Assembly: GCA_963821395.1 (NCBI GenBank) | Contig: CAWGDY010000034.1 | Span: forward strand, 61,963 to 125,962 | Length of the DNA: 64,000 nt | Direction: 5' to 3' | Origin: Vicinamibacterales bacterium | GTDB lineage: Bacteria > Acidobacteriota > Vicinamibacteria > Vicinamibacterales > JAMQPK01 | Part shown: in pieces, positions 6,024 through 62,316 of the stretch | Layout: every line of letters begins with the position of its first letter | Numbering within the stretch: position 1 is the first letter of the stretch | Position numbers and translations under genes: made by a program | Notes under the pieces: model-generated | The model's database searches: none | What the model was told of the DNA's origin: nothing | The model's input: only the letters and a program-made list of their open reading frames with translations

Positions 6024-6108
6024 ATCTAGAATCGCAGAATGCTAAAACCTAGAATCTGAAATCTTCCAGATTCTAGATTCTAGATTCTAGCATTTCAGAT
6101 TCCAGGTT
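6024..6108. repeat. periodic-arm hairpin (AGAATCT units)
   Basis: tagaatcgcagaatgctaaaacctagaatctgaaatc faces gattctagattctagattctagcatttcagattc. It starts immediately after the stop of the Omp85-like gene. Confidence 0.65.
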
Positions 6109-11708: not shown

Positions 11709-11816
11709 CGAATCTGAACAGAAGATCAGAAGGTCAGAAGAAACTTGAATCTGGAAGATCAGTATCAGTCAACTTCTGATCTTTAGATCTTCAGTTTTAG
11801 TTTTTAGATCTTCAGG
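11709..11816. repeat. periodic-arm hairpin (AGATC/GATCT units) between convergent genes
   Basis: gaacagaagatcagaaggtcagaag..ctggaagatcag faces cttctgatctttagatcttcag..tagatcttcagg. Confidence 0.65.
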
Positions 11817-12961: not shown

Positions 12962-13687
12962 CTAACGCGCCAGGAAGTGTTTAGGTATCGGCGTCCACGC
13001 GTGGCGACCTTCATAGAAGAGCGGCTTCCGATTGGGATGTCGCTCCTTGAATTCGCGATATCGCCGCCGGAACTCGCGGAATCGTGCGTCCGGCATCCCG
13101 AGCGGCTGGTGCCTGGTGTCGAGCAGCATCCGCTCCACTTTCCACACGTTCCTTCCGGACAGGCGCCAGTCGTAGGCACCCATCACGCGAAGATCGACCA
13201 GCGCGAAGGCCGTGATGCGTCCGGTGAGGTCGACGTACTCGTCGAGGTAGCTGGCGGCCAGCGCCCGCGGCGTCGCGAAGACCGGCTTGCGTCCGTGCAG
13301 CCCCGGGTCGCGCGACCGCGCGACGGAGCCCCAGCAAACATCGTCGATCATCGATCGGCGATCGTCCATCGTCTGGGGCGCCGACGATGGACGATGGACG
13401 ATGGACGATGGACGATGTTGGTACACGAAAATCACGTGGTCGAGCTCGTCGATCGATTCGAAGCTGATGACGAGCGGCGGATACCCGTGCTGCTCGAGCA
13501 CCGTTGCCGCAAACAGCGCCGCCTCGAGGCAATGCGCCGTCCGATGACGGACGACGCCGCGGAAGCTGCGCAGCGTCGCGCGACCGGGTGGCGGCTCCGT
13601 GTTGTAGGGGAGCGCGTTGAGGTAGCGCTGGACGGCCAGCGGCGTCCGCAGCCTGGCGACGAGCCGACGCTCGGCGCGTGATGTCAG
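12962..13687 (-). CDS. conserved hypothetical, possible papain/transglutaminase-like thiol enzyme (AHCLEAA motif), carrying an in-frame palindromic insertion
   Basis: The frame stays open from the SCO1 stop: (L)TSRAERRLVARLRTPLAVQRYLNALPYNTE..RTAHCLEAALFAATVLEQHGYPPLV.. No ATG/GTG/TTG occurs before 13501; CTG at 13687 is the best start candidate. Family assignment is tentative. Confidence 0.45.
   Translation of the reverse strand: MTSRAERRLVARLRTPLAVQRYLNALPYNTEPPPGRATLRSFRGVVRHRTAHCLEAALFAATVLEQHGYPPLVISFESIDELDHVIFVYQHRPSSIVHRPSSAPQTMDDRRSMIDDVCWGSVARSRDPGLHGRKPVFATPRALAASYLDEYVDLTGRITAFALVDLRVMGAYDWRLSGRNVWKVERMLLDTRHQPLGMPDARFREFRRRYREFKERHPNRKPLFYEGRHAWTPIPKHFLAR
13337..13420. repeat. 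intragenic imperfect palindrome (GATGGAC tandem arm), 84 nt, in frame
   Basis: acatcgtcgatcatcgatcggcgatcgtccatcgtc / tggggcgcc / gacgatggacgatggacgatggacgatggacgatgt. It encodes ..QHRPSSIVHRPSSAPQTMDDRRSMIDDV.. inside the ORF. Confidence 0.7.
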
Positions 13688-13717
13688 CGCGCCTCGGCCC
13701 TTCGACGCTGAAGGGCG

Positions 13718-14566
13718 TCAGAGCAGGCGTTCCAGTTCGGTGACGAGATCCGTGGCTGTCCAATCGGCTCCAGCGTAGCTCTTGACGATTCTGCCGTCGC
13801 GACCCACCACGGTCGTCCGCAATGTGTGGCCGATCTCTTCCGGGTTCGCCGCCTGGCCTCTCACGAGCGTGACGAGCATGTTCGTGGCAAACCGATCGAT
13901 CGCCTCGCGCTCGCCGGTGACGAAATTCCACACTCGTGGATCGGATCGGAGTTTCTGCGCATGCGCCTTCAACACCGCGGGCGTGTCGTTCTTCGGGTCG
14001 AAGCTCACCGACAGCAGCGCGGCTTTGCCCGTGAGACCTTTCTCCTTGATGAGCGCCTGCGCTTCGGCGAACTGGCGATCCATCGCGGGGCAGAAGGTCG
14101 GAATCGGACACTTCGTGTAGATAAAGGTGATCGCGATGGGCCGGCTGGCGCGAATGGTATTGAAGTCGCGCTCGCGTCCCTCCTCGTCGACGAAGACCTG
14201 GTTGGGCACTTCGTCGCCGGGCATCAGGTATTTCGCGCCCGGCGCCGTTGGTGCCGGTGGCGGCACATCCGGTTTCGCGGTGCCCGTCTTCGTGATTTTC
14301 GTGACGACGGCCTGACTGCCGTCGACTTCGATTTCGCTCGTGATCAGGTCGCCGGCCTCGAGGGTGTCGAGCATGTTCGCCGTCCGCACTTTCCACGGCA
14401 TCGTCATCGCCGGCATGAGGCCCTTGATGTCCTCGTGTTTGACGAGAATCTCCATCTTGTCGCGGTTCACGCCGAGAATCTGGCCGCGCATTTCGTACGT
14501 CTTGGCGCTCGTGCACGCGGCCGCCAGGACGAGCAGCGCGGCGGCGCGAAAACCCCGGGATTTCAT
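13718..14566 (-). CDS. lipoprotein fusing a CusF-like Cu(I)-binding domain to a SCO1/SenC copper chaperone
   Basis: Lipobox LAAAC; HEDIKGLMPAMTMPWKV (CusF-type Met motif); thioredoxin-like FIYTKCPIPTFCP plus a later conserved His (GHTLRT). Confidence 0.8.
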   Translation of the reverse strand: MKSRGFRAAALLVLAAACTSAKTYEMRGQILGVNRDKMEILVKHEDIKGLMPAMTMPWKVRTANMLDTLEAGDLITSEIEVDGSQAVVTKITKTGTAKPDVPPPAPTAPGAKYLMPGDEVPNQVFVDEEGRERDFNTIRASRPIAITFIYTKCPIPTFCPAMDRQFAEAQALIKEKGLTGKAALLSVSFDPKNDTPAVLKAHAQKLRSDPRVWNFVTGEREAIDRFATNMLVTLVRGQAANPEEIGHTLRTTVVGRDGRIVKSYAGADWTATDLVTELERLL

Positions 14567-14594: not shown

Positions 14595-16176
14595 ATGAGC
14601 AAAGGGAAAACTCGTCGTATCGAGATCATGGATACGACGCTTCGCGATGGCGAGCAGGCCGAAGGCATCTCGATGATGCCCGAAGAGAAGCGCACCATCG
14701 CGCAGCGGCTGCTCGAGTCGGTCAAGGTCGATCGCATCGAGGTGGCCTCGGCGCGCGTCAGCGAAGGCGAACGGCGTGCGGTGAAGGCGATTATCGATTA
14801 CGCCGAGTCGAAGGGTCTCGCGAGCCGCGTCGAGATTCTCGGATTCGTCGATGGCAACCGATCGGTCGACTGGGCGAAATCGGTGGGCGCCCGCGTGATC
14901 AATCTTCTGACGAAGGGCTCGCTGCATCACTGCCGCGAGCAGTTGAAGAAGACGCACGAGCAGCATCTCGACGACATCCGCAGGACGATCGAGTACGGCG
15001 CGAAGAACGGCATCACGTTCAACGTCTATCTCGAGGACTGGTCGGGCGGCATGCTGCACTCTCCCGACTACGTGGTCGAGCACATCGACGCGCTCACCCA
15101 CATGCCCGTGCGCCGCATCATGCTGCCCGATACGCTCGGGCTGCTGCGCCCGGCGCAGGTGCGCGATTTCGTGAGCCAGATCATCCGCCGGTTTCCCGGG
15201 CCCCATTTCGACTTCCACGGCCACAACGACTACGGGCTGGGCACCGCCAACACGCTCGAGGCGGCCACTCGCGGGCGCCCACGGCGTGCACGTCACCGTC
15301 AACGGGATGGGCGAGCGCGCCGGCAACGTGACGCTCGACGAGGTTGTCGTCGCGCTGCGCGATCATGCGGGCATCAGAACGGCGGTCGACGAGCGATCGT
15401 TGTCCGAAGTCAGCAAGCTCGTCGAAGTGTTCTCGGGCCGCCGCGTGCCGGCGAACAAGCCCATCGTCGGGGAGAACGTGTTCACGCAGACCGCGGGGAT
15501 TCACGCCGACGGCGACATGAAGGGCAATCTCTACGAGAGCCGGCTCACGCCCGCGCGCTTTGGCCAGCACCGCACCTACGCGATGGGCAAGCTGATGGGG
15601 AAGGCGAGCCTCGACTTCAACCTCGAGCGGCTGAACATCGCGCTGTCGGCCGAGCAGAAGCAGCAGCTTCTGGCGCGCATCGTCGAGCTGGGGGATCAGA
15701 AGAAGAGCGTCACGCAGGCCGATCTGCCGTTCCTGATTTCAGAAGTGCTGCAGACCCGCGAGCTGCGCGTCTTCGAGGTGAAGGACTACTCGGTTGTCAC
15801 GAATCGCGGACTGCGGCCGACCGCGACGCTGCTCGTGCGCTACCGCGACCGCGAGCTGCACGCGACCGGATTCGGCGACGGCGGCTACGACGCCTTCATG
15901 CAGGCCCTGAAAAGCATCGAGAAGCAGCTGGGCTTCGAGCTGCCGAAGCTGCTCGATTATGAGGTTAGAATCCCACCGGGCGGCAAGACCGACGCCCTGG
16001 TGGAGACCACCATCAAGTGGGAAGGGGGCATGAAGACCCGCGGCGTGCACAGCGATCAGCTCGCGGCGGCGATTCAGGCCACGGAACACGCCATTAACAT
16101 GATCGCGCTGCGGAGCGCGCCACCTGCGAAAGGCACGGGTCACGGGCCAAGGGGCGAGGGGCGCTCAGAGGGATGC
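14595..16176 (+). CDS. cimA: (R)-citramalate synthase, Leptospira CimA type (one +1 frameshift; no stop of its own)
   Basis: IMDTTLRDGEQ, VDRIEVASARVSEGE, ILGFVDGN, NLLTKGSLHH, HFDFHGHNDY, then the next frame gives VNGMGERAGN, LVEVFSGRRVPANKPIVGENVFTQTAGIHADGD, YEVRIPPGGKTDALVET. An extra G lies near 15272 (cgcgggcgcc). Confidence 0.8.
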
Positions 16177-16596
16177 ATGGCACAGCTCAGCACAAAAAAA
16201 TCGCTGAATCTCGACGCGGCTAAGGCCATCGGCAATGCGGCCGAGGCCAAAGCCCGCGAGCTGAACTTTACCAACTGCGTCGCCATCGTCGACGATGGCG
16301 GCAACCTGATTTATCTCGTGACGATGGACGGGACCCAGGTGGGCAGCATCCACGTCGCGCAGGAGAAGGCGCTGGCGGCCCTCCGCTTCAAGCGCTCGAC
16401 CAAGCTGTTCCAGGACATGGTGACCGGCGACAAGCCGCACATGGCATTTCTGCCGGGCGCCGTGCCCGTGGAGGGCGGGCTGCCGCTGTTCGTCGACGGG
16501 CAGATCTACGGTGCGATTGGTGTCAGCGGAATGCCGTCAGACAAAGACGGTATCGTCGCCCAGGCGGGCGCCGACTTCGCCGCGACGCTGAAGTAA
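16177..16596 (+). CDS. GlcG/HbpS-like (DUF336) heme-binding family protein
   Basis: MAQLSTKKSLNLDAAKAIGNAAEAKARELN..VAIVDDGGNLIYL..GGLPLFVDGQIYGAIGVSG; in frame with cimA with no intervening stop. Confidence 0.75.
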   Translation: MAQLSTKKSLNLDAAKAIGNAAEAKARELNFTNCVAIVDDGGNLIYLVTMDGTQVGSIHVAQEKALAALRFKRSTKLFQDMVTGDKPHMAFLPGAVPVEGGLPLFVDGQIYGAIGVSGMPSDKDGIVAQAGADFAATLK

Positions 16597-17285: not shown

Positions 17286-17993
17286 TGCGTCGGCACTTCC
17301 GGCTACAACTATCCTGAATGGAAGGGGAGCTTTTACCCGGCCGATCTTGCGGCCGCGAAGATGCTCCCTTACTACGCGGCGCGGTTTCCCACCGTCGAGA
17401 TCAACTACACGTTCTACCGGATGCCCACGGAGAAGCTGCTCGCGGGGTGGACCAGGCAGGTACCGCCCGCGTTCAGATTCACGCTGAAGGCTCCCCGGCG
17501 GATTACGCACGACGCGAAGCTGGTCAACTGCGAGAAGCTGACTGCCGAGTTCTGCCACGTCGCCGGCACGCTCGGCGATCAACTCGCCGCGCTCCTGTTC
17601 CAGCTGCCGCCGTCACTGAAGAAAGATCTCGCACGGCTCGACGCGTTCATCGACACCCTGCCGCCGAAAGCGCCGGCGGCCTTCGAGTTTCGCCATCCGT
17701 CGTGGTTCGACGAAGAGGTGTTCGGCCGCCTGCGAGACCGGGGCCGGGCGCTGTGCGTGGCCGACAGCGAGAAGCTGGAAACGCCGCTCGAGGTGACCGC
17801 CGACTTCGGCTATTTCCGCCTTCGCGATGAAGGCTACCAGGCGGATGACATCAAGGAGTGGGCACGGAGGATTGGCGCGCTCGGCGATCGCTGCAGGGAA
17901 ATCTACGTGTACTTCAAGCACGAAGAGCAGGGCCTCGGGCCGGAGTTCGCCCGACAGCTGATGAAACATCTGGGACTGGGGAGTGGGGATTAG
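17278..17993 (+). CDS. DUF72 (YecE-like) family protein, +1 frameshift at codon 3-4
   Basis: ATG ATC C[T]G CGT.. Removing one nt gives MIRVGTSGYNYPEWKGSFYPADLAAAKMLPYYAARFPTVEINYTFYR, the canonical DUF72 N-terminus. The stop TAG lies inside the TAGGGAT array. Confidence 0.8.
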
Positions 17994-18056
17994 GGATTGG
18001 GGATTAGGGATTGGGTCAGTCGCAAGTCACAAGTCGGCAGTCAGAAGTCGCAAGGC
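17975..18056. repeat. left composite arm: GGGATT array + AGTCGCA-type array
   Basis: ggggattagggattggggattagggattggg + tcagtcgcaagtcacaagtcggcagtcagaagtcgcaagg. An inverted counterpart is at 19030-19113. Confidence 0.7.
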
Positions 18057-19029: not shown

Positions 19030-19113
19030 AGGTGCGACTTCGACTTGAGACTGTCGACTTTCGACTTGCGACTTGAGACTGCTAATCCCCAATCCCTAAT
19101 CCCCAATCCCTAG
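19030..19113. repeat. right composite arm (inverted): AGTC-type array + CCCTAAT array
   Basis: The reverse complement tagggattggggattagggattggggattag + cagtctcaagtcgcaagtcgaaagtcgacagtctcaagtcgaagtcgca mirrors 17975-18056. It ends 4 nt from the hydrolase stop. Confidence 0.7.
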
Positions 19114-21556: not shown

Positions 21557-21607
21557 CGCTGGCGATTCTATCGGGGTCGGGAGGGGTTTTCCCAATATCG
21601 CGCGGAT

Positions 21608-21653
21608 AAAACGGGGTCGGCATCGCGCGCAAAACCCCTCCCGACCCCGTTTT
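21608..21653 (-). terminator. intrinsic-terminator-like hairpin with U tract, plus competing long-range pairing
   Basis: The minus-strand RNA reads AAAACGGGGUCGG-(20 nt)-CCGACCCCGUUUUAU directly after stop 21652. The first arm can instead pair perfectly (19 bp) with 21572-21590. Confidence 0.55.
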
Positions 21654-22611
21654 ACTCGACCAGATGACAGTGATAACAACCGACGGCCGCGCGCGAGCGG
21701 TTGTATCCGTACGATCGGGCGAAGTCGTAAGCGGGACGGTGCATCAGCTTCGCCATGCCGGGGAGCACGACCTGGCGCATGTAGGCCGCGGTCGACTGGT
21801 TGCTCTCCTCCGCGAGATATCCATAGACGGCGTTGCGCATCTGCGGGTCGAGCCACGACCGCGCCCGCTCGAGGCCCGCGAGGCGGAGCTCGGGTTCGGG
21901 AAGCGCCCGCACGCCGGGCATCCGCCAGTCTTTCTGGCGCGCGTCGATGCCGTGGCACGTCTCGCACGTCACGTTGTCGGCTCCGCCGACGAGCGGCGCG
22001 AGCACGCGCCGCGCGAACGGCATGACGTCGTGCTCCATGAAGGCGGAGATTTCCTCGGTGGTCCGGTGATGGCCATCCGGGAAGATCGGATCGTCGGCGG
22101 CATACACGACCGGTGGCAGGGTGGTGTGCCGGACGAGTCCGACGAGGCCGAAGAGCGACGCACACAACACGGCGGCGGCGAGCGTCAGTCCCCGATGGGG
22201 ATGCAGAATCGAGGGCGCACCAGGGCCGAGCGCCCGGCGAAAGAAATCGGCGTCGAGGTTCCGCCGGTCGTCCCCGAAGAGCTCGGTCGCACGCAGCTGA
22301 AGGATGAGGGCGAGCTCCGGCCCATGGTGAATATTGGCGAGTTCGAGCCCCTCGTCGTCGCGGCGCGAGGCAATCCGAACGGTGCTCGTGCCCAGGGCAC
22401 GTTGCCACCAGGATTGCGACAGGGTGACGCTCTCGATGTCCTCGAGCGCAAGCTCGCTGACCGTACGGTTCTTACGCCGGATGACGATGCGAAAATCTGT
22501 GAACGCGTAGCGCGTGCGCGGCTGCGAGAGCGATGCGGGGAAGTCCGGACGGGAAGACCAGAGCACCTGCTCCCACGGAAGGGGGAAGATTTCCTCGGTC
22601 TTCATGGTCAT
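21652..22611 (-). CDS. bPH (DUF304/YdbT-like) domain - TM - c-type cytochrome (two CxxCH) fusion protein
   Basis: YAFTDFRIVIRRKNRTVSELALEDIESVTL (bacterial PH-like), TM LTLAAAVLCASLFGLVGLV, heme motifs CETCH and CYHCH. Confidence 0.6.
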   Translation of the reverse strand: MTMKTEEIFPLPWEQVLWSSRPDFPASLSQPRTRYAFTDFRIVIRRKNRTVSELALEDIESVTLSQSWWQRALGTSTVRIASRRDDEGLELANIHHGPELALILQLRATELFGDDRRNLDADFFRRALGPGAPSILHPHRGLTLAAAVLCASLFGLVGLVRHTTLPPVVYAADDPIFPDGHHRTTEEISAFMEHDVMPFARRVLAPLVGGADNVTCETCHGIDARQKDWRMPGVRALPEPELRLAGLERARSWLDPQMRNAVYGYLAEESNQSTAAYMRQVVLPGMAKLMHRPAYDFARSYGYNRSRAAVGCYHCHLVE

Positions 22612-28287: not shown

Positions 28288-28304
28288 GGGGTAATCCTAT
28301 CAGA

Positions 28305-28364
28305 GGGCTTAGGGCTGAGGGCTGAGGGCTGAGGGCTGAGGGCTCAGGGCCGAGGGCTTAGGGT
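28305..28364 (+). repeat. GGGCTGA 7-mer tandem array (about 9 units; strong G-quadruplex motif)
   Basis: gggcttagggctgagggctgagggctgagggctgagggctcagggccgagggcttaggg, between divergent yggX and gdh. Confidence 0.8.
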
Positions 28365-41502: not shown

Positions 41503-41607
41503 CTATTCGCAGATTGGTAGATTGCGAGATTCGCAGATTACGAGGTTCGCGGAGTTCAATCTGACAATCAATCTGCGAATCTACCAATCTGCCAATCTGC
41601 GAATTCA
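41503..41607. repeat. periodic-arm hairpin (CAGATTGG / CCAATCTG units) between convergent glcE and glcD
   Basis: cgcagattggtagattgcgagattcgcagattacgagg faces caatctgacaatcaatctgcgaatctaccaatctgccaatctgcgaattc. Confidence 0.75.
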
Positions 41608-43056: not shown

Positions 43057-43130
43057 GGGCCTGAGGTTTGGATAGTAGCATGGCAGGCGCGCCGTCCCGC
43101 CGCCCGGGAAACGGTTCCGGGATCCGTTTT

Positions 43131-43844
43131 CTAACGCTTCAGCTCGGCGAGCCTGCGCTCGGCCTCTCGGAGCGCCCGCTCTGCCTTTTCGATCTCGCGC
43201 GCACGCTTCTCCTGCTCTCTGCGCGCCTTTTCTTCGGCCTGCCGTGCTTTCGCTTCTGCCTGCTGTCGCGCGCGTTCTGCCTGCTTCTCGGCAAGCCTGT
43301 GCCGCTTGATGTCAACGGGCGAGGCACTGGTTTGACGAGCGGAGGGCTTCGCCTGTGGTTCACTCGTCCGTGGCTTGATGCCGGTGAGCAGACTGAATCC
43401 TGCCGGCGGCGGCTCGCGCGTGATCCGCCCTGGCGCTTCATCGGTCGGCAGTGCGGCCAGTGTACGGCGGACGGTATCGCGCACCGCGTCCGTCGTCCGA
43501 ACGCCGTTCTTCTCGGCGGCGCCGATCGACTGTGCGAAAGCTTTCTCCAGCGTCGTCTTGTGGAGCTCGCCGGCTTTGCGTGTGTCCGTGGCGCGTCCCG
43601 ACAAGGCGGCGCGATGCGCGGCCCGGAGTTTCTCGGAGGCATCGACGAGCGCCTGATAGGTCGGCTTGTTGTGCCAGTAGAGGTGGTTGATCACCCACAT
43701 CGCGAGCGAAGGCTTGACCAGCGAGGCGACGGCCTGCCTTTCGCGCCCGTCGAGCGTCTTGGCGAGCGCGTTGCGGGTTTTCGTGAACTCGTCGAGGGGC
43801 AGTCCGTACAGGTCGTCGATTTGCGCCTGGAGATTGGATTTCAT
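43131..43844 (-). CDS. hypothetical protein with C-terminal coiled coil
   Basis: 237-aa ORF with good coding composition; tail AEKQAERARQQAEAKARQAEEKARREQEKRAREIEKAERALREAERRLAELKR. Confidence 0.55.
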   Translation of the reverse strand: MKSNLQAQIDDLYGLPLDEFTKTRNALAKTLDGRERQAVASLVKPSLAMWVINHLYWHNKPTYQALVDASEKLRAAHRAALSGRATDTRKAGELHKTTLEKAFAQSIGAAEKNGVRTTDAVRDTVRRTLAALPTDEAPGRITREPPPAGFSLLTGIKPRTSEPQAKPSARQTSASPVDIKRHRLAEKQAERARQQAEAKARQAEEKARREQEKRAREIEKAERALREAERRLAELKR

Positions 43845-55879: not shown

Positions 55880-57499
55880 TCAGGCGACGGCTTCGGGTAA
55901 TGGACGCGCCCGCGCTTCCGGCGGCAGCTCCACGTACGCGCGTTCGCGGCGCCGCGCCTGTTGGAACCGTTCGAAGACGTTGCGCTGCGCCTCGAGCCCG
56001 ATCATGGATCGCAGGGTGGTTCCGGCAAAAACGTACCTGGTCATCTCGGGCCAATGCCGCAGCACGAACGATGGGCTGTGCAGGAATGCGGCGGGCAGGT
56101 GCTTCAGCTTCATCCACCGTTCCGCGCGCCATCGCATGAACTCCACCTCGGTCGCCGGCACATGTTTCGTGCGAACGACGGCGGTCGTCCCATCGTAGTG
56201 CGACATGTCTTCGTCGACGATCAGGCGGTCCTGGCGGAATTGCTGCGTCATGGGCGTGCGCGGATAGGGCGTCGGGTGCTGAATGTACGGCCAGTCCACG
56301 TACTGCCGGGCGAACTCGAGATTCGTCTCGATCGATTCGCGCGTGTCGTCGGGGTTGCCCACGATGAGCCCGCCGACGACGAAGAGGCCGTGACGATGGA
56401 GATGATCGATGGCTTCGATGGTGGCGTTCCCGCCTTGCCCGAGCCCGTGGCGCGCATTCTTCGCCCGTGCCTTGAGAAAATCGAGATCGCTCTCGAGGAT
56501 GTTCTCGATGCCAAGGAAGACGTACCGGAACCCCGCCCGCTTCATGAGCGGCGCGAGCGTCGCGCCGTGCTGCGCCAGGGGCGAGGTCATGGCCTGCACG
56601 AAATACTCGATGTCGTTCAGGCCGGCGTCGATAATCGCCTGACACAACAGTTCGAAACGCCGGATGTCGAGCGTGATGTTGTCGTCGACGAGGAAAATCG
56701 CCCGCGCACCGTGGTTGCGGGCGTCGGTAATGTCGGCGAGCACGCGATCGATGGAATAGACGTGAAAGTTGCGGCCGCGCATCTCGATGATGGAGCAGAA
56801 GCTGCAATCGTAGGTGCAGCCGCGCGACGTTTCCACGACATCCACCTGGCGGCCGAGCAGCGTGTAGCCCTCGAGGACTCGAGCCGCCCTGTTGGGAAGC
56901 CGCAACGGATCTGATTTCAGGTTCGTGATGGCCCTTTCCGGCCCGTGAACCCATCGGCCGGTGAGTGGCGGGTCTTGAAGTGCAAGACCCGCCCTACGTT
57001 CGCCGTGACTCGAGTAGGGCGGGTCTTGCTTTCCAAGACCCGCCATGCAGCGGCTCGAGAGCCCCGCGATTGACGGCAGGGGCCCGCCGGCTTCCAGTGC
57101 GCGCAGTAGATCGCAAAATGTCTGTTCGCCTTCGCCGCGGACCAGGAAATCCACGTCGTCGCACGATTCGTAGGCCGCCGGCGCGAGGCTGGGATCGTAC
57201 CCGCCCACCACAATCCGTGTCGCGGGGCTGAGGTGTTTGACGAGCCGGGCAATCTTGAAGGCGGTCGCCCGCTGAAACGTCATCACGGACATGCCGACGA
57301 CATCGGGCTGGTGCTCGCGCATCAACCGCTCGACGGTGGACACGACCCGGGACTGCGCGAGGATCAGATCGGCGATCGCGACTCGATGATGCGGGTCGAG
57401 ATTTCCGGCGATCGACGACAGCGCGCCGTTGGGCATGCGCACCACCATCGATGGCATGTGCTCGAAGGAATCGGGCATCGAGAGGAGGAGGATATTCAT
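55880..57499 (-). CDS. B12-binding-domain radical SAM protein carrying an in-frame 78-nt palindromic insertion
   Basis: N-terminal cobalamin-binding-like fold (DVVGMSVMTF..VVGGY), radical SAM CTYDCSFCS. The inserted peptide ..MAGLGKQDPPYSSHGERRAGLALQDPP.. lies between the two domains. Confidence 0.85.
   Translation of the reverse strand: MNILLLSMPDSFEHMPSMVVRMPNGALSSIAGNLDPHHRVAIADLILAQSRVVSTVERLMREHQPDVVGMSVMTFQRATAFKIARLVKHLSPATRIVVGGYDPSLAPAAYESCDDVDFLVRGEGEQTFCDLLRALEAGGPLPSIAGLSSRCMAGLGKQDPPYSSHGERRAGLALQDPPLTGRWVHGPERAITNLKSDPLRLPNRAARVLEGYTLLGRQVDVVETSRGCTYDCSFCSIIEMRGRNFHVYSIDRVLADITDARNHGARAIFLVDDNITLDIRRFELLCQAIIDAGLNDIEYFVQAMTSPLAQHGATLAPLMKRAGFRYVFLGIENILESDLDFLKARAKNARHGLGQGGNATIEAIDHLHRHGLFVVGGLIVGNPDDTRESIETNLEFARQYVDWPYIQHPTPYPRTPMTQQFRQDRLIVDEDMSHYDGTTAVVRTKHVPATEVEFMRWRAERWMKLKHLPAAFLHSPSFVLRHWPEMTRYVFAGTTLRSMIGLEAQRNVFERFQQARRRERAYVELPPEARARPLPEAVA
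56967..57044. repeat. intragenic double-hairpin palindromic element (78 nt, in frame)
   Basis: GGCGGGTCTTG-aagtg-CAAGACCCGCC CTAC gttcgccgtgactcga GTAG GGCGGGTCTTG-ctttc-CAAGACCCGCC. Confidence 0.8.
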
Positions 57500-57524
57500 G
57501 CGCGTTCGCGCCTCCTTGCAGATA

Positions 57525-60686: not shown

Positions 60687-62225
60687 GTGCCGGACGCCAT
60701 TGTCCCCATCGCCCTGATGCTCACCGCCGGACTTGTGGCGGCCCTATCCCTGAGAGAGCGCATCATCAATCGCCGGCTGTCGAGCGATATTCGAGTCGCG
60801 CATCAGCGCCTTCGTCTCGCCCTCGAGGCGGGCAAGGCCGTCGCGTGGGACTGGGACGTCAAGAGCGGCCGCGACACCTGGTTCGGCGATCTGAAGACGA
60901 TGTTCGGCATCCCGGGCGACCTCTACGAGGGAAGGGTCGAGGATTTCCACGCGCGTGTCCATCCCGACGATCGGGAGCGCGTGGGGCAGGCCGTGGCGGC
61001 CGCCAGGCGCGATCGCGCGATGTACAACGCGACGTTCCGCGTGCGCTGGCAGGACGGAACGGTGCGCTGGGCCGCGGCGCACGGGCGGTTCTACTACGGC
61101 GCCGACGGCGAGCCGGTTCGCATGCTGGGCATCGCCGAAGACGTGACCGAACGCACGCGTGCCGAGGCAGCGCGAAGAGAGACCGAAGCGCGGTTTCAGT
61201 TGATGGCCGACGGGGCGCCCGTGTTCATCTGGCTATCGGATTCCGACAGGCGCCGCACCTACGTCAATCGCCCGTACCTCGAATTTACCGGCGGAGCGCT
61301 GGAGACGGAACTGGGCAGCGGCTGGACCGAGAGTGTGCACCCTGAGGACGTGAAGCACTGCGTGATGACGTACGCCCGGGCGTTCGACCGGCGCCGATCG
61401 TTCAGGATGGAGTACAGACTGCGACGGCACGATGGCGTCTATCGCTGGTTGCTCGACACCGGTGTGCCGCGATTGTCGGCAGACGGAGAATTCGCCGGCT
61501 ACATCGGTTCCTGTGTCGACGTCACGGAAGAGAAGCTGGCCAAGGAAGCGCTCTCGCGTCTGAGCCGCAGGCTGATGGAATCCCAGGAATCGGAACGTAT
61601 CGGGCTGGCCCGGGCGCTGCACGACGACCTGGCTCAACGCATGGCGCTCCTGACCATCGAGCTGGAAACACTCAGCCAGGTGTTGCCTCGCCCCAGCCAG
61701 TCCGACGACGTGCGCACCAGGTTTCGGGCGTTGAACACTCACGCCGTCGAATTGGGACGGGACATTCAGGCCATTTCTCAGCGGTTGCACTCGTTCAAGC
61801 TGGAGTATCTCGGCATCGCGGTAGCGGTCGAGGGTTTCTGCCGGGACGTCTGCAAGCAGGAACACGTGGAGATCGAGTTCAAGTCGTCGGGCATTGCCGA
61901 TGACCTGCCGAAGGATGTCGGACTCTGCCTCCTCCGCGTGCTCGAGGAGGCGCTGGCCAACGCCGTCAGACATGCCCGTGTGGGGCACTTCAAGGTCCTG
62001 CTGCGCGGGACCCGCGACGAGATCCAGCTCGAGGTCATCGATCGCGGCGTCGGCTTCGATCTGGATGAGGCGATGGGCAGCCACGGCCTGGGCATGACGA
62101 GCATGCGCGAGAGGCTGCGCCTTGTGAACGGCGCCATGGCGGTCGAATCGAGACCGGGCGCGGGAACGACCGTGCGCGCCCGCGTACCGCTGCGCTCTCC
62201 CGGTCGCGACGTCGTGCTGCACTAG
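60687..62225 (+). CDS. PAS-domain sensor histidine kinase (HisKA_3 / NarL-partner type), no adjacent response regulator
   Basis: One TM helix, two PAS-like repeats (..YRVRWQDGTVRW.., ..YRLRRHDGVYRW..), ESERIGLARALHDDLAQ, C-terminal HATPase (GLGMTSMRERL). Confidence 0.85.
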   Translation: MPDAIVPIALMLTAGLVAALSLRERIINRRLSSDIRVAHQRLRLALEAGKAVAWDWDVKSGRDTWFGDLKTMFGIPGDLYEGRVEDFHARVHPDDRERVGQAVAAARRDRAMYNATFRVRWQDGTVRWAAAHGRFYYGADGEPVRMLGIAEDVTERTRAEAARRETEARFQLMADGAPVFIWLSDSDRRRTYVNRPYLEFTGGALETELGSGWTESVHPEDVKHCVMTYARAFDRRRSFRMEYRLRRHDGVYRWLLDTGVPRLSADGEFAGYIGSCVDVTEEKLAKEALSRLSRRLMESQESERIGLARALHDDLAQRMALLTIELETLSQVLPRPSQSDDVRTRFRALNTHAVELGRDIQAISQRLHSFKLEYLGIAVAVEGFCRDVCKQEHVEIEFKSSGIADDLPKDVGLCLLRVLEEALANAVRHARVGHFKVLLRGTRDEIQLEVIDRGVGFDLDEAMGSHGLGMTSMRERLRLVNGAMAVESRPGAGTTVRARVPLRSPGRDVVLH

Positions 62226-62231
62226 AAAGGC

Positions 62232-62316
62232 AGTTTTCAGTTCTCAGTGGTCAGTCCTCAGTCTGAAGCCCACTGAAAACTGACGACTGAGAACTGACAA
62301 CTGAGAACTGACAACG
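62232..62316. repeat. periodic-arm hairpin (CTCAGT / ACTGAG units)
   Basis: 62238-62265 versus 62283-62310 is complementary at 25 of 28 positions by hand alignment. Confidence 0.75.

Follow-up and report, generated by a model that had tools for sequence, protein, structure and literature searches.

The host gene

This study concerns a palindromic segment within a minus-strand gene of a Vicinamibacterales bacterium (Acidobacteriota; assembly GCA_963821395.1, contig CAWGDY010000034.1). The gene lies in a stretch of 64,000 nucleotides (contig positions 61,963 to 125,962), here called the window, and all coordinates are positions in this 64-kb window. An earlier note on this DNA had pointed to an in-frame palindrome inside the minus-strand gene 12962-13687, and this is upheld by a repeat finder, by folding and by translation. 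The segment is translated in frame and without a stop as part of the minus-strand open reading frame (ORF) that ends at 12962 (Table 1).

A profile of 25 orthologs of the host protein matches the CPR-C4 entries 7ob6/7pjo of the PDB (E=6e-21, profile positions 7-151). CPR-C4 itself belongs to the transglutaminase-like cysteine proteases, is a vasohibin relative and has the triad Cys-His-Leu(carbonyl), C61/H93/L115 (PMC9108980). Cys53, His84 and Leu130 of the window protein are invariant in the 25 orthologs and align with these three residues, and the gene is predicted from its sequence to encode a CPR-C4/vasohibin-like cysteine protease with a conserved triad. Pfam and NCBIfam searches with the host protein gave no usable match, and an AlphaFold2 model made from the 25-sequence alignment was too poor to use (mean pLDDT 42.5). 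In CPR-C4 only three residues, D-G-H, separate the catalytic-His strand (DHVVALFKI) from the following strand (WGAISK), whereas the window has 29 residues there. This suggests a position for the segment at a beta-hairpin tip, six residues past the catalytic His. The frame of the host gene is open to 13717 and has no ATG, GTG or TTG upstream of 13501, hence none before the catalytic Cys; it is possible that the gene starts with CTG at 13687 or that its start is masked by a 1-nt error.

Table 1. Positions of the host gene, its catalytic codons and the parts of the palindromic segment (mRNA sense where sequence is given)
Feature	Position	Strand	Remarks
Host gene, predicted CPR-C4/vasohibin-like (transglutaminase-like) cysteine protease	12962..13687	-	ORF and profile match; stop TAG at 12964-12962
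Catalytic Cys53 codon TGC	13529..13531	-	invariant column; aligns with the AHC motif of CPR-C4
Catalytic His84 codon CAC	13436..13438	-	six codons upstream of the variable segment; aligns with H93
Variable segment	13334..13420	-	87 nt = 29 codons (QHRPSSIVHRPSSAPQTMDDRRSMIDDVC) between the anchors ..DHVIFVY and WGSVARSRD; extracted between anchors, 84 loci
5' arm, (CATCGTC)5	13383..13419	-	read in three frames, HRPSSIV HRPSS; Tandem Repeats Finder (TRF) and inverted-repeat finder
Hairpin loop, GGCGCCCCA	13374..13382	-	1 nt shorter than the loop of L001 and L082
3' arm, degenerate complementary array GACGATG GACGATC GCCGATC GATGATC GACGATG(TT)	13337..13373	-	TRF and inverted-repeat finder
Leu130 codon CTG	13298..13300	-	11 codons past the segment; counterpart of the CPR-C4 Leu115 carbonyl

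Anatomy of the hairpin

The repeat finder returned an inverted repeat with arms of 37 nt that are 9 nt apart and 86% complementary. TRF found that both arms are arrays of period 7: on the plus strand GACGATG is repeated 5.0 times at 100% match in 13383-13417 (score 70), and a second array in 13340-13373 has 4.9 copies at 81% match. Read on the minus strand from ..GTG TAC to TGG GGC.., the order is CAA, the five CATCGTC units, the loop, the five units of the 3' arm and TTTGC; the Cys that precedes WGS is not conserved among orthologs. The earlier note had described one arm as 4.5 tandem GATGGAC units and the other as its degenerate reverse complement. The heptamer array and the degenerate partner arm are both confirmed, but GATGGAC is the same unit as GACGATG read in another register, and the copies number 5.0. 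The same note had given the insertion as 84 nt and 28 codons at 13337-13420, which is indeed in frame and stop-free, but the non-conserved segment is longer by one codon (Table 1).

Single-stranded DNA folding of the hairpin gave -29.6 kcal/mol against -17.05 +/- 2.78 for shuffled sequences (z = -4.5, with 0 of 200 shuffles as good), and RNA parameters gave z = -8.4. The motif GACGATGGACGATG, with two mismatches or fewer, has seven matches in the window where 1.4 are expected, six of them within the hairpin. Since a heptanucleotide simple sequence repeat (SSR) is defined by at least three head-to-tail copies of 7 nt, both the perfect and the degenerate arm belong to that class. The palindrome also lies in frame within an intact conserved ORF, with flanking anchors that are 100% conserved, as do repetitive extragenic palindromic (REP) sequences and Rickettsia palindromic elements (RPE) found inside genes. 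It does not have the arrangement of the REPIN/RAYT system, two inverted REP units of ~20-25 nt with a spacer; its arms are five tandem heptamers and not REP palindromes. Each CATCGTC unit already ends in CGTC, so that the repeat itself would mask a CGTC tag of the kind described by Di Nocera et al. (2013). A scan for terminators and promoters gave neither at the hairpin (13337-13419), where there is no T-run and the tail reads GTTTGCTGG, and the only Rfam matches at the hairpin were generic miRNA-hairpin matches of 24-26 bits against gathering scores of 97-268.

The turn in orthologs

The host protein abounds in metagenomes of Vicinamibacterales and other Acidobacteriota: there are 8000 matches, the best 120 of which are 75-93% identical to it. 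In all of these best 120 of 8000 proteins the stretch between DHVIFVY and WGSVARSRD is variable, with 4-35 aa, and no other part of the protein, which is otherwise roughly 80% identical, varies as much as this turn. Ortholog DNA was compared for 80 species representatives (84 loci with DNA in total). The turn is exactly 15 nt long in 65 of the 80, 24 nt in two and 33-87 nt in 13, and the 15-nt form encodes five residues with the consensus [QR]xxGR (xxxGR). The orthologs thus show the gap that the earlier note expected of them, and the comparison shows the ancestral state to be a beta-turn of 15 nt and five codons. As the ancestral turn has 15 nt and not zero, the net gain in the window is 72 nt (66 nt relative to L081, the closest relative without the hairpin).

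All 13 long alleles are confined to one Vicinamibacterales clade, with at least 75% amino acid identity to the window, of which three members keep 15 nt. In a neighbour-joining tree of the conserved parts of the protein the long-allele clade is contiguous and apart from the outgroup; the order of alleles inside the clade is not resolved by this tree.

Repeat types occupying the turn

Classification of the DNA alleles by folding and periodicity, together with peptide patterns in the best 120 proteins, indicates that at least six unrelated repeat or hairpin types fill the turn within this one clade. The earlier note had described an insertion into a conserved gene, and in this respect the gap in orthologs agrees with it, but the turn is a hypervariable hot spot and not the scene of a one-off event. 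Type A is the periodic-arm hairpin with CATCGTC/GACGATG arms of the window, L001 and L082 (=P0001). Type B consists of perfect palindromes, AAAAGGGGWCGGGA...TCCCGWCCCCTTTT, translated KRGRE..SRPLF, in about 35 of the 120 proteins. Types C (GAAACGGNTCCGGGANCCGTTTTC, in L012 and L068) and D (GGGGTCWGACCCC, translated KRGLTP..GVRP, in L004 and L006) are doublets. Type E is a one-armed (AGCCCTC)n array, translated SPQPSAL, found in 16 of the 120 proteins, and type F a one-armed (AGTCCAG/AGTCCAA)n array, translated VQSPESR/K, in L007, L014 and L015; a further type, (CAGTCGG)n, occurs in L005. The one-armed arrays start directly past the first turn codon, and about half of them retain the ancestral G-R or G-G before the Trp.

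Several of these types are also found outside the gene. An intergenic hairpin of the window at 21573-21648 (palindrome 21563-21658) shares the 18-19-nt arms of the L002 and L003 inserts letter for letter, and the 25-nt arm of the L012 insert is identical to intergenic positions 43107-43131. In the distant species L029, L034, L037 and L043 a spacer of roughly 90 nt immediately upstream of the gene is bordered by arms of the L010 type, and the type E unit, as GAGGGCT, forms an intergenic array in the window at 28303-28363. Types B and C are thus members of dispersed families. The window palindromes at 21573-21648 and 43107-43131 belong to dispersed REP-like families with roughly one copy per 64 kb. 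Inspection of the dispersed palindromes for transposon signatures (target-site duplication, or flanks common to in-gene and intergenic copies) found none.

One explanation for long alleles at this position is a selected function, either of the nucleic acid (mRNA processing or stability, a translational pause, an internal attenuator) or through diversifying selection on a protease loop for specificity or interactions. Ten of the 15 long alleles are strong hairpins, and the turn, besides being so variable, lies between the catalytic His and the strand of the Leu carbonyl. In addition, arm residues co-vary across the palindromic classes (ESFS/EKDS, EGFS/ENPS, EPFS/EKGS), so that complementarity outlasts sequence change. 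However, this co-variation equally fits independent draws from dispersed palindrome subfamilies. Four one-armed alleles (L005, L007, L014 and L015) form no hairpin (z > -2) and several members of the clade have only 4-7 aa, therefore neither a hairpin nor a long loop is required. There is also no T-tract or terminator signature and no Rfam family, the arm complementarity of the window allele is decaying (86%), and the peptide frame differs between close relatives. A selected function is thus regarded as distinctly improbable. With regard to palindromes as such, the earlier note is not fully upheld, since the same four orthologs have heptamer arrays of a single arm and no palindrome.

The reading frame is kept throughout. 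All 84 alleles with DNA are multiples of 3 in length, in line with the earlier note. The locus was considered as a phase-variable contingency locus, in which gain or loss of one 7-nt unit toggles the protease, as the unit length is not a multiple of 3, one arm has five perfect copies and unit number differs among relatives. However, no off-frame allele was found among the 84 loci. All seven periodic alleles (window, L001, L082, L005, L007, L014 and L015) are in frame, for which random phase gives P about 5e-4, and the non-periodic palindromes at the turn cannot phase-vary. Array alleles step by 7 aa, that is by 21 nt or three units, in the series 10/17/24 and 14/21/28 aa, and these three-unit steps show selection against an off state. 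Phase variation is very unlikely and was rejected because all alleles are in frame.

The hairpin allele in close relatives

The same hairpin is found in L082 and L001, whose flanks are 98.8/97.8% and 96.7/94.7% identical to those of the window. In L081 (flanks 97.5/95.8%) the turn reads only CAA CATCGTC GACGAGG CCTG, with one unit per arm (CATCGT|CGACGAGG), and in L083 it reads CAA CAT CGT CGA GGC CTC. Alignment A2 shows that L001 differs from L081 by a single 66-nt block made up of the flanking units and the loop only. In the same alignment the window has a loop 1 nt short and a 3' end 1 nt long relative to its relatives, and L082 has an additional 3-nt deletion. The 3' arm is consequently read as TMDDRRSMIDDV in the window and as DDGRSTIDDRR in L001, with the frame restored at the Trp. 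Because this compensated -1/+1 shift separates close relatives, it is the frame and not the peptide that is conserved. Units are more uniform within an arm than the arms are complementary to each other ((CATCGTC)5 against GACGATC-rich units), and the window, L082 and L001 differ unit by unit at a fixed position, as SSRs do.

The His-Arg codons CAT CGT, with which the unit CATCGTC overlaps, are also found in the hairpin-free L081, L083, L011, L045 and L064; the unexpanded turns of L045, L064 and L011 read QHRGR or QHRGG. Type A and type B alleles alternate among lineages that are 2-5% diverged. L002 is the closest genome overall, with 96.7% identity over 8.7 kb, yet it has a type B palindrome at the site. 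In a leuA-like gene nearby there is a recombination breakpoint at about 14964, where identity between L082 and the window changes from 80-83% to 97-99%, and the region is a mosaic in this sense.

An error of assembly or sequencing, for example a fold-back chimera or a repeat put together wrongly, must also be weighed, since palindromes and repeats are error-prone and the window contains at least one other doubtful site, an extra C near 15268 relative to four relatives, which is either a probable single-base error or a genuine frameshift. However, L082 (an Illumina k141 contig) and L001, which were assembled independently from other samples, have this hairpin at the identical codon position, the hairpin is in frame, and the ENA protein P0001 carries the hairpin peptide. 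The near-identical hairpins in L082 and L001 make mis-assembly extremely unlikely, and it was rejected on these grounds.

Copies elsewhere and genomic setting

No second GACGATG array was found in the window, which is about 1% of the genome, or in ~630 kb of related loci (80 loci). A metagenome scan for (GACGATG)3 gave at least 120 matches in contigs of 36-73% G+C, and such arrays are widespread; none of the 120 matches listed is the orthologous gene. Many of the listed matches are hairpins with a CATCGTC/TATCGTC partner arm in unrelated intergenic contexts. Four such hairpins from contigs of 61-64% G+C occupy ordinary intergenic spacers and vary from one to the next in unit number, in the loop and in the flanks, and no shared termini were seen among the metagenome GACGATG hairpins. 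In about ten unrelated contigs among those listed (L094, L103, L105, L114, L116, L153, L166, L184, L185, L192 and L202) a (GACGATG)n/(TATCGTC)n hairpin is nested in a larger conserved inverted repeat, TATAGCAATCCTATGTGATTTGTAAAC ... GTTTACATCTGATGTAGG, which appears by its sequence to be a distinct dispersed element.

Within the window nearly every spacer holds a tandem array with a unit of 6-9 nt, about half of them as inverted pairs, and arrays number 2.9 per 10 kb in the clade and 1.6 per 10 kb in outgroup loci. Periodic-arm hairpins are present in the spacers at 6037-6102, 11719-11812, 41505-41604 and 62231-62315, and the likeness to intergenic hairpins that the earlier note had drawn is thereby borne out. 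The spacer at 11719-11812, past an exo/endonuclease/phosphatase-family gene, has a periodic hairpin or array in every relative (L001-L005, L010, L012 and L082). Its unit drifts with divergence (GAAGATC, ACTGATCT, GATCTAGG, AATCTGG), and one arm is lost in L003. Intergenic arrays of this sort therefore stay in place and evolve by concerted change.

A second in-frame palindrome is present in a coding region of the window, which supports the earlier note. A gene for a B12-binding radical-SAM protein (minus-strand ORF 55880-57502) contains two copies of a GTAG-tagged REP-like palindrome in frame at 56957-57054, GGCGGGTCTTG..CAAGACCCGCC, and the insert begins with GTAG. Among the closest 120 homologs the distance between anchors is 44 residues, the ancestral length, in 83 of 119. 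It rises to 55 residues, with one palindrome copy, in the five closest homologs and to about 73, with two copies, in the window.

These data bear on the main rival explanation of the hairpin at the turn, a mobile insertion like those of RPEs and REPs, in which a non-autonomous palindrome was inserted or was copied ectopically during break repair or template switching, the short alleles being scars. In its favor, sister species hold perfect palindromes with stems of 23-28 bp at the turn (z -10 to -12.5), whose arms recur elsewhere as described above for L002/L003, L012 and the L010 type, and import at this turn has certainly happened for types B to D. The double palindrome at 56957-57054 with its ortholog length polymorphism, the GACGATG/CATCGTC-armed hairpins in unrelated intergenic sites on contigs of similar G+C, the alternation of A and B alleles among such close lineages and the in-frame intragenic REPs and RPEs coding for 20-30 aa that are on record (PMC3733652) point the same way. 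However, the lack of a second GACGATG array in the sequence searched argues against it for type A. In addition, the arms are SSR arrays that lack defined ends, there is no sign of a target-site duplication, the unit matches codons that are ancestral at this place, hairpins at other loci vary in unit number, loop and flanks, and the arms are imperfect and evolve unit by unit. For the window hairpin a mobile insertion is therefore considered rather unlikely.

Some further features of the window should be noted. The gene junction at 13687-13720 has 34 extra bases in the window relative to L002, including a small hairpin (CCCTTC..GAAGGG), and has other lengths in L081 and L082, making it another variable hairpin site. 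At about 15268 there is an extra C in GGCCACTCGCGG relative to L001, L002, L003 and L082, and the resulting +1 frameshift splits a 2-isopropylmalate/citramalate synthase-like (leuA-like) gene on the plus strand into ORFs 14595-15962 and 15286-16596; the split means either that the gene is a true pseudogene or that one base was wrongly assembled. The arrays at 17972-18054, (GGGATTG)n(AGTCGCA)n, and 19033-19112, (TGCGACT)n(AATCCCC)n, are in exact reverse-complement order and form a long-range inverted pair; the ~1 kb between them has no convincing ORF and no Rfam match. Across the whole 64-kb window no Rfam family reached its gathering score.

Origin of the hairpin

The reading favored here, with moderate confidence, is that the hairpin is a heptanucleotide SSR palindrome that was seeded by the codons of the turn, grown by slippage, completed by template switching, filtered for reading frame and shuffled by recombination. 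We infer that the direction of change was growth and not decay, and that slippage and template switching were the mechanism. Arginine-rich turn codons of the Q-H-R-G-R type (CAG CAT CGN GGN CGN) would first have acquired small slippage duplications, giving CAA CAT CGT CGA GGC, as in L083, and then CAA CATCGTC GACGAGG, as in L081, which would be a short palindrome with one unit of either future arm. The 7-nt unit would then have been multiplied by replication slippage, the complementary arm supplied and lengthened by intrastrand template switching or fold-back copying, and the arms would now be homogenised separately by further slippage. Selection would remove only those alleles that contain a stop or are not multiples of 3, leaving the peptide to drift freely at a permissive surface site, and the hairpin would be passenger DNA and not a designed protein segment. 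Within the clade the turn has been refilled repeatedly, by other heptamer arrays and by imported REP-like palindromes, and homologous recombination in the near-invariant flanks would pass alleles from one close lineage to another.

Local generation is favored because the unit matches the codons CAT CGT and because L081 holds one unit per arm. Further support comes from the varying ends of hairpins with such arms at unrelated loci, from the unit-level differences among the window, L082 and L001, from the 21-nt steps of the array alleles and from the intergenic arrays, which likewise stay in place while their unit drifts. The earlier note had left the choice at mobile or locally generated; the data favor the second for the window hairpin, and the non-periodic palindromes at the site in sister species belong to dispersed families. 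Heptanucleotide SSRs are over-represented in bacteria, which has been ascribed to polymerase slippage (PMC4692102, PMC4679880), and hairpin arms can be made and homogenised by template switching (PMC8794818, PMC8604942).

Several observations weigh against this reading. The short alleles of L081 (CATCGTC|GACGAGG) and L083 fit remnants left by deletion from a larger hairpin just as well as seeds. Palindromes commonly lose their centre and SSRs commonly contract, so that change may have run in either direction. The loop of 9-10 nt (GGCGCCCCA / GGTCGCTCC) is not obviously derived from adjoining sequence. L002, so similar to the window over 8.7 kb, holds an unrelated palindrome at the same site, and because its arms are identical to the hairpin at 21573-21648 dispersed hairpins do enter the turn. 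The 62 outgroup species have heptamer arrays in their spacers and never at the turn, so slippage alone fails to explain why the turn was opened in a single clade. Finally, the search for further copies in the genome itself covered 64 kb only.

A related alternative is that the turn is a true cassette site, at which unrelated hairpin and heptamer DNAs are inserted and replaced in frame faster than species diverge. We consider this improbable. If it were true, it would imply either hairpin-targeting insertion and replacement inside coding DNA or diversifying selection on a specificity loop, the latter fed from the repeat pool of the genome, and in both cases a natural repeat-driven system that diversifies a protein loop.

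The locus offers a natural series, from a fixed five-residue turn through short palindromic seeds or scars to inserts of 29-35 residues. It shows how repeat DNA of a non-coding type, both heptamer SSRs and REP-like palindromes, can enter and remodel a loop beside an active site under a reading-frame filter alone. With near-invariant flanks and many alleles, the locus is suited to measuring slippage, template switching, palindrome deletion and recombination in uncultured bacteria. It also serves as a caution that a loop of low complexity in a metagenomic protein can consist of translated repeat DNA.

Comparison with known systems

The closest precedents are the RPEs, reportedly described by Ogata et al. 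in 2000, and the REPs found inside genes. Di Nocera et al. (2013) described intragenic GTAG/CGTC-tagged REPs, including intragenic REP dimers in Opitutus and Thauera (PMC3733652). As in these cases, a short palindromic repeat lies in frame in a conserved and apparently functional gene and adds 20-30 residues at a tolerated site, and related hairpins are mostly intergenic. However, RPEs and REPs have a fixed consensus, whereas the arms in the window are tandem heptanucleotide arrays, and the window array is single in 64 kb with a unit that matches local codons. A further difference from RPEs is that at least six unrelated repeat types occupy one codon position in sister species, and to our knowledge such occupation has not been described for RPEs. 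The case extends to soil Acidobacteriota what has been called selfish DNA in genes, known from Rickettsia and a few other taxa.

Bacterial heptanucleotide SSRs include the short tandemly repeated repetitive (STRR) sequences of cyanobacteria, GGGAATC in Xanthomonas and TAACTGA in Beggiatoaceae (PMC4692102, PMC4679880). The window array resembles them in its tandem 7-nt units and in its strong variation in length and sequence between close relatives at a fixed position; such arrays are occasionally inverted and capable of forming a stem-loop, and within ORFs they are read in three frames as a 7-aa repeat. Known arrays are overwhelmingly intergenic, however, whereas that of the window is a complete hairpin in frame in a predicted catalytic domain. 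REPINs, which are REP doublets mobilised by RAYT transposases (PMC3116915), likewise form a long hairpin from two inverted copies and a short spacer, and the inserts of L004, L012 and L068 and that at 56957-57054 look like this. The window arms, in contrast, are not REP palindromes and have a low copy number, and REPINs are almost exclusively extragenic.

Inverted repeats made or homogenised by template switching, with both arms translated where they are coding, are known (PMC8794818, PMC8604942), including the coding palindromes of Nematomorpha mitochondria (PMC6649704), but these are not built from SSRs and do not recur at one codon position across species. In-frame tandem repeats in Borg proteins create disordered regions (PMC9879509) and are comparable in that fast-evolving tandem repeats of DNA add low-complexity peptide under a frame constraint. 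Borg coding units are divisible by 3, whereas the window unit is 7 nt long, so that the frame is kept only through changes of three units or through compensating indels, and the window repeat is palindromic. In-frame palindromic repeats in genes (RPE and intragenic REP) and heptamer SSRs were thus already known. What is new is a palindrome with SSR arms that is translated within a predicted catalytic domain, the many unrelated repeat types at one codon position, and the occurrence in Acidobacteriota.

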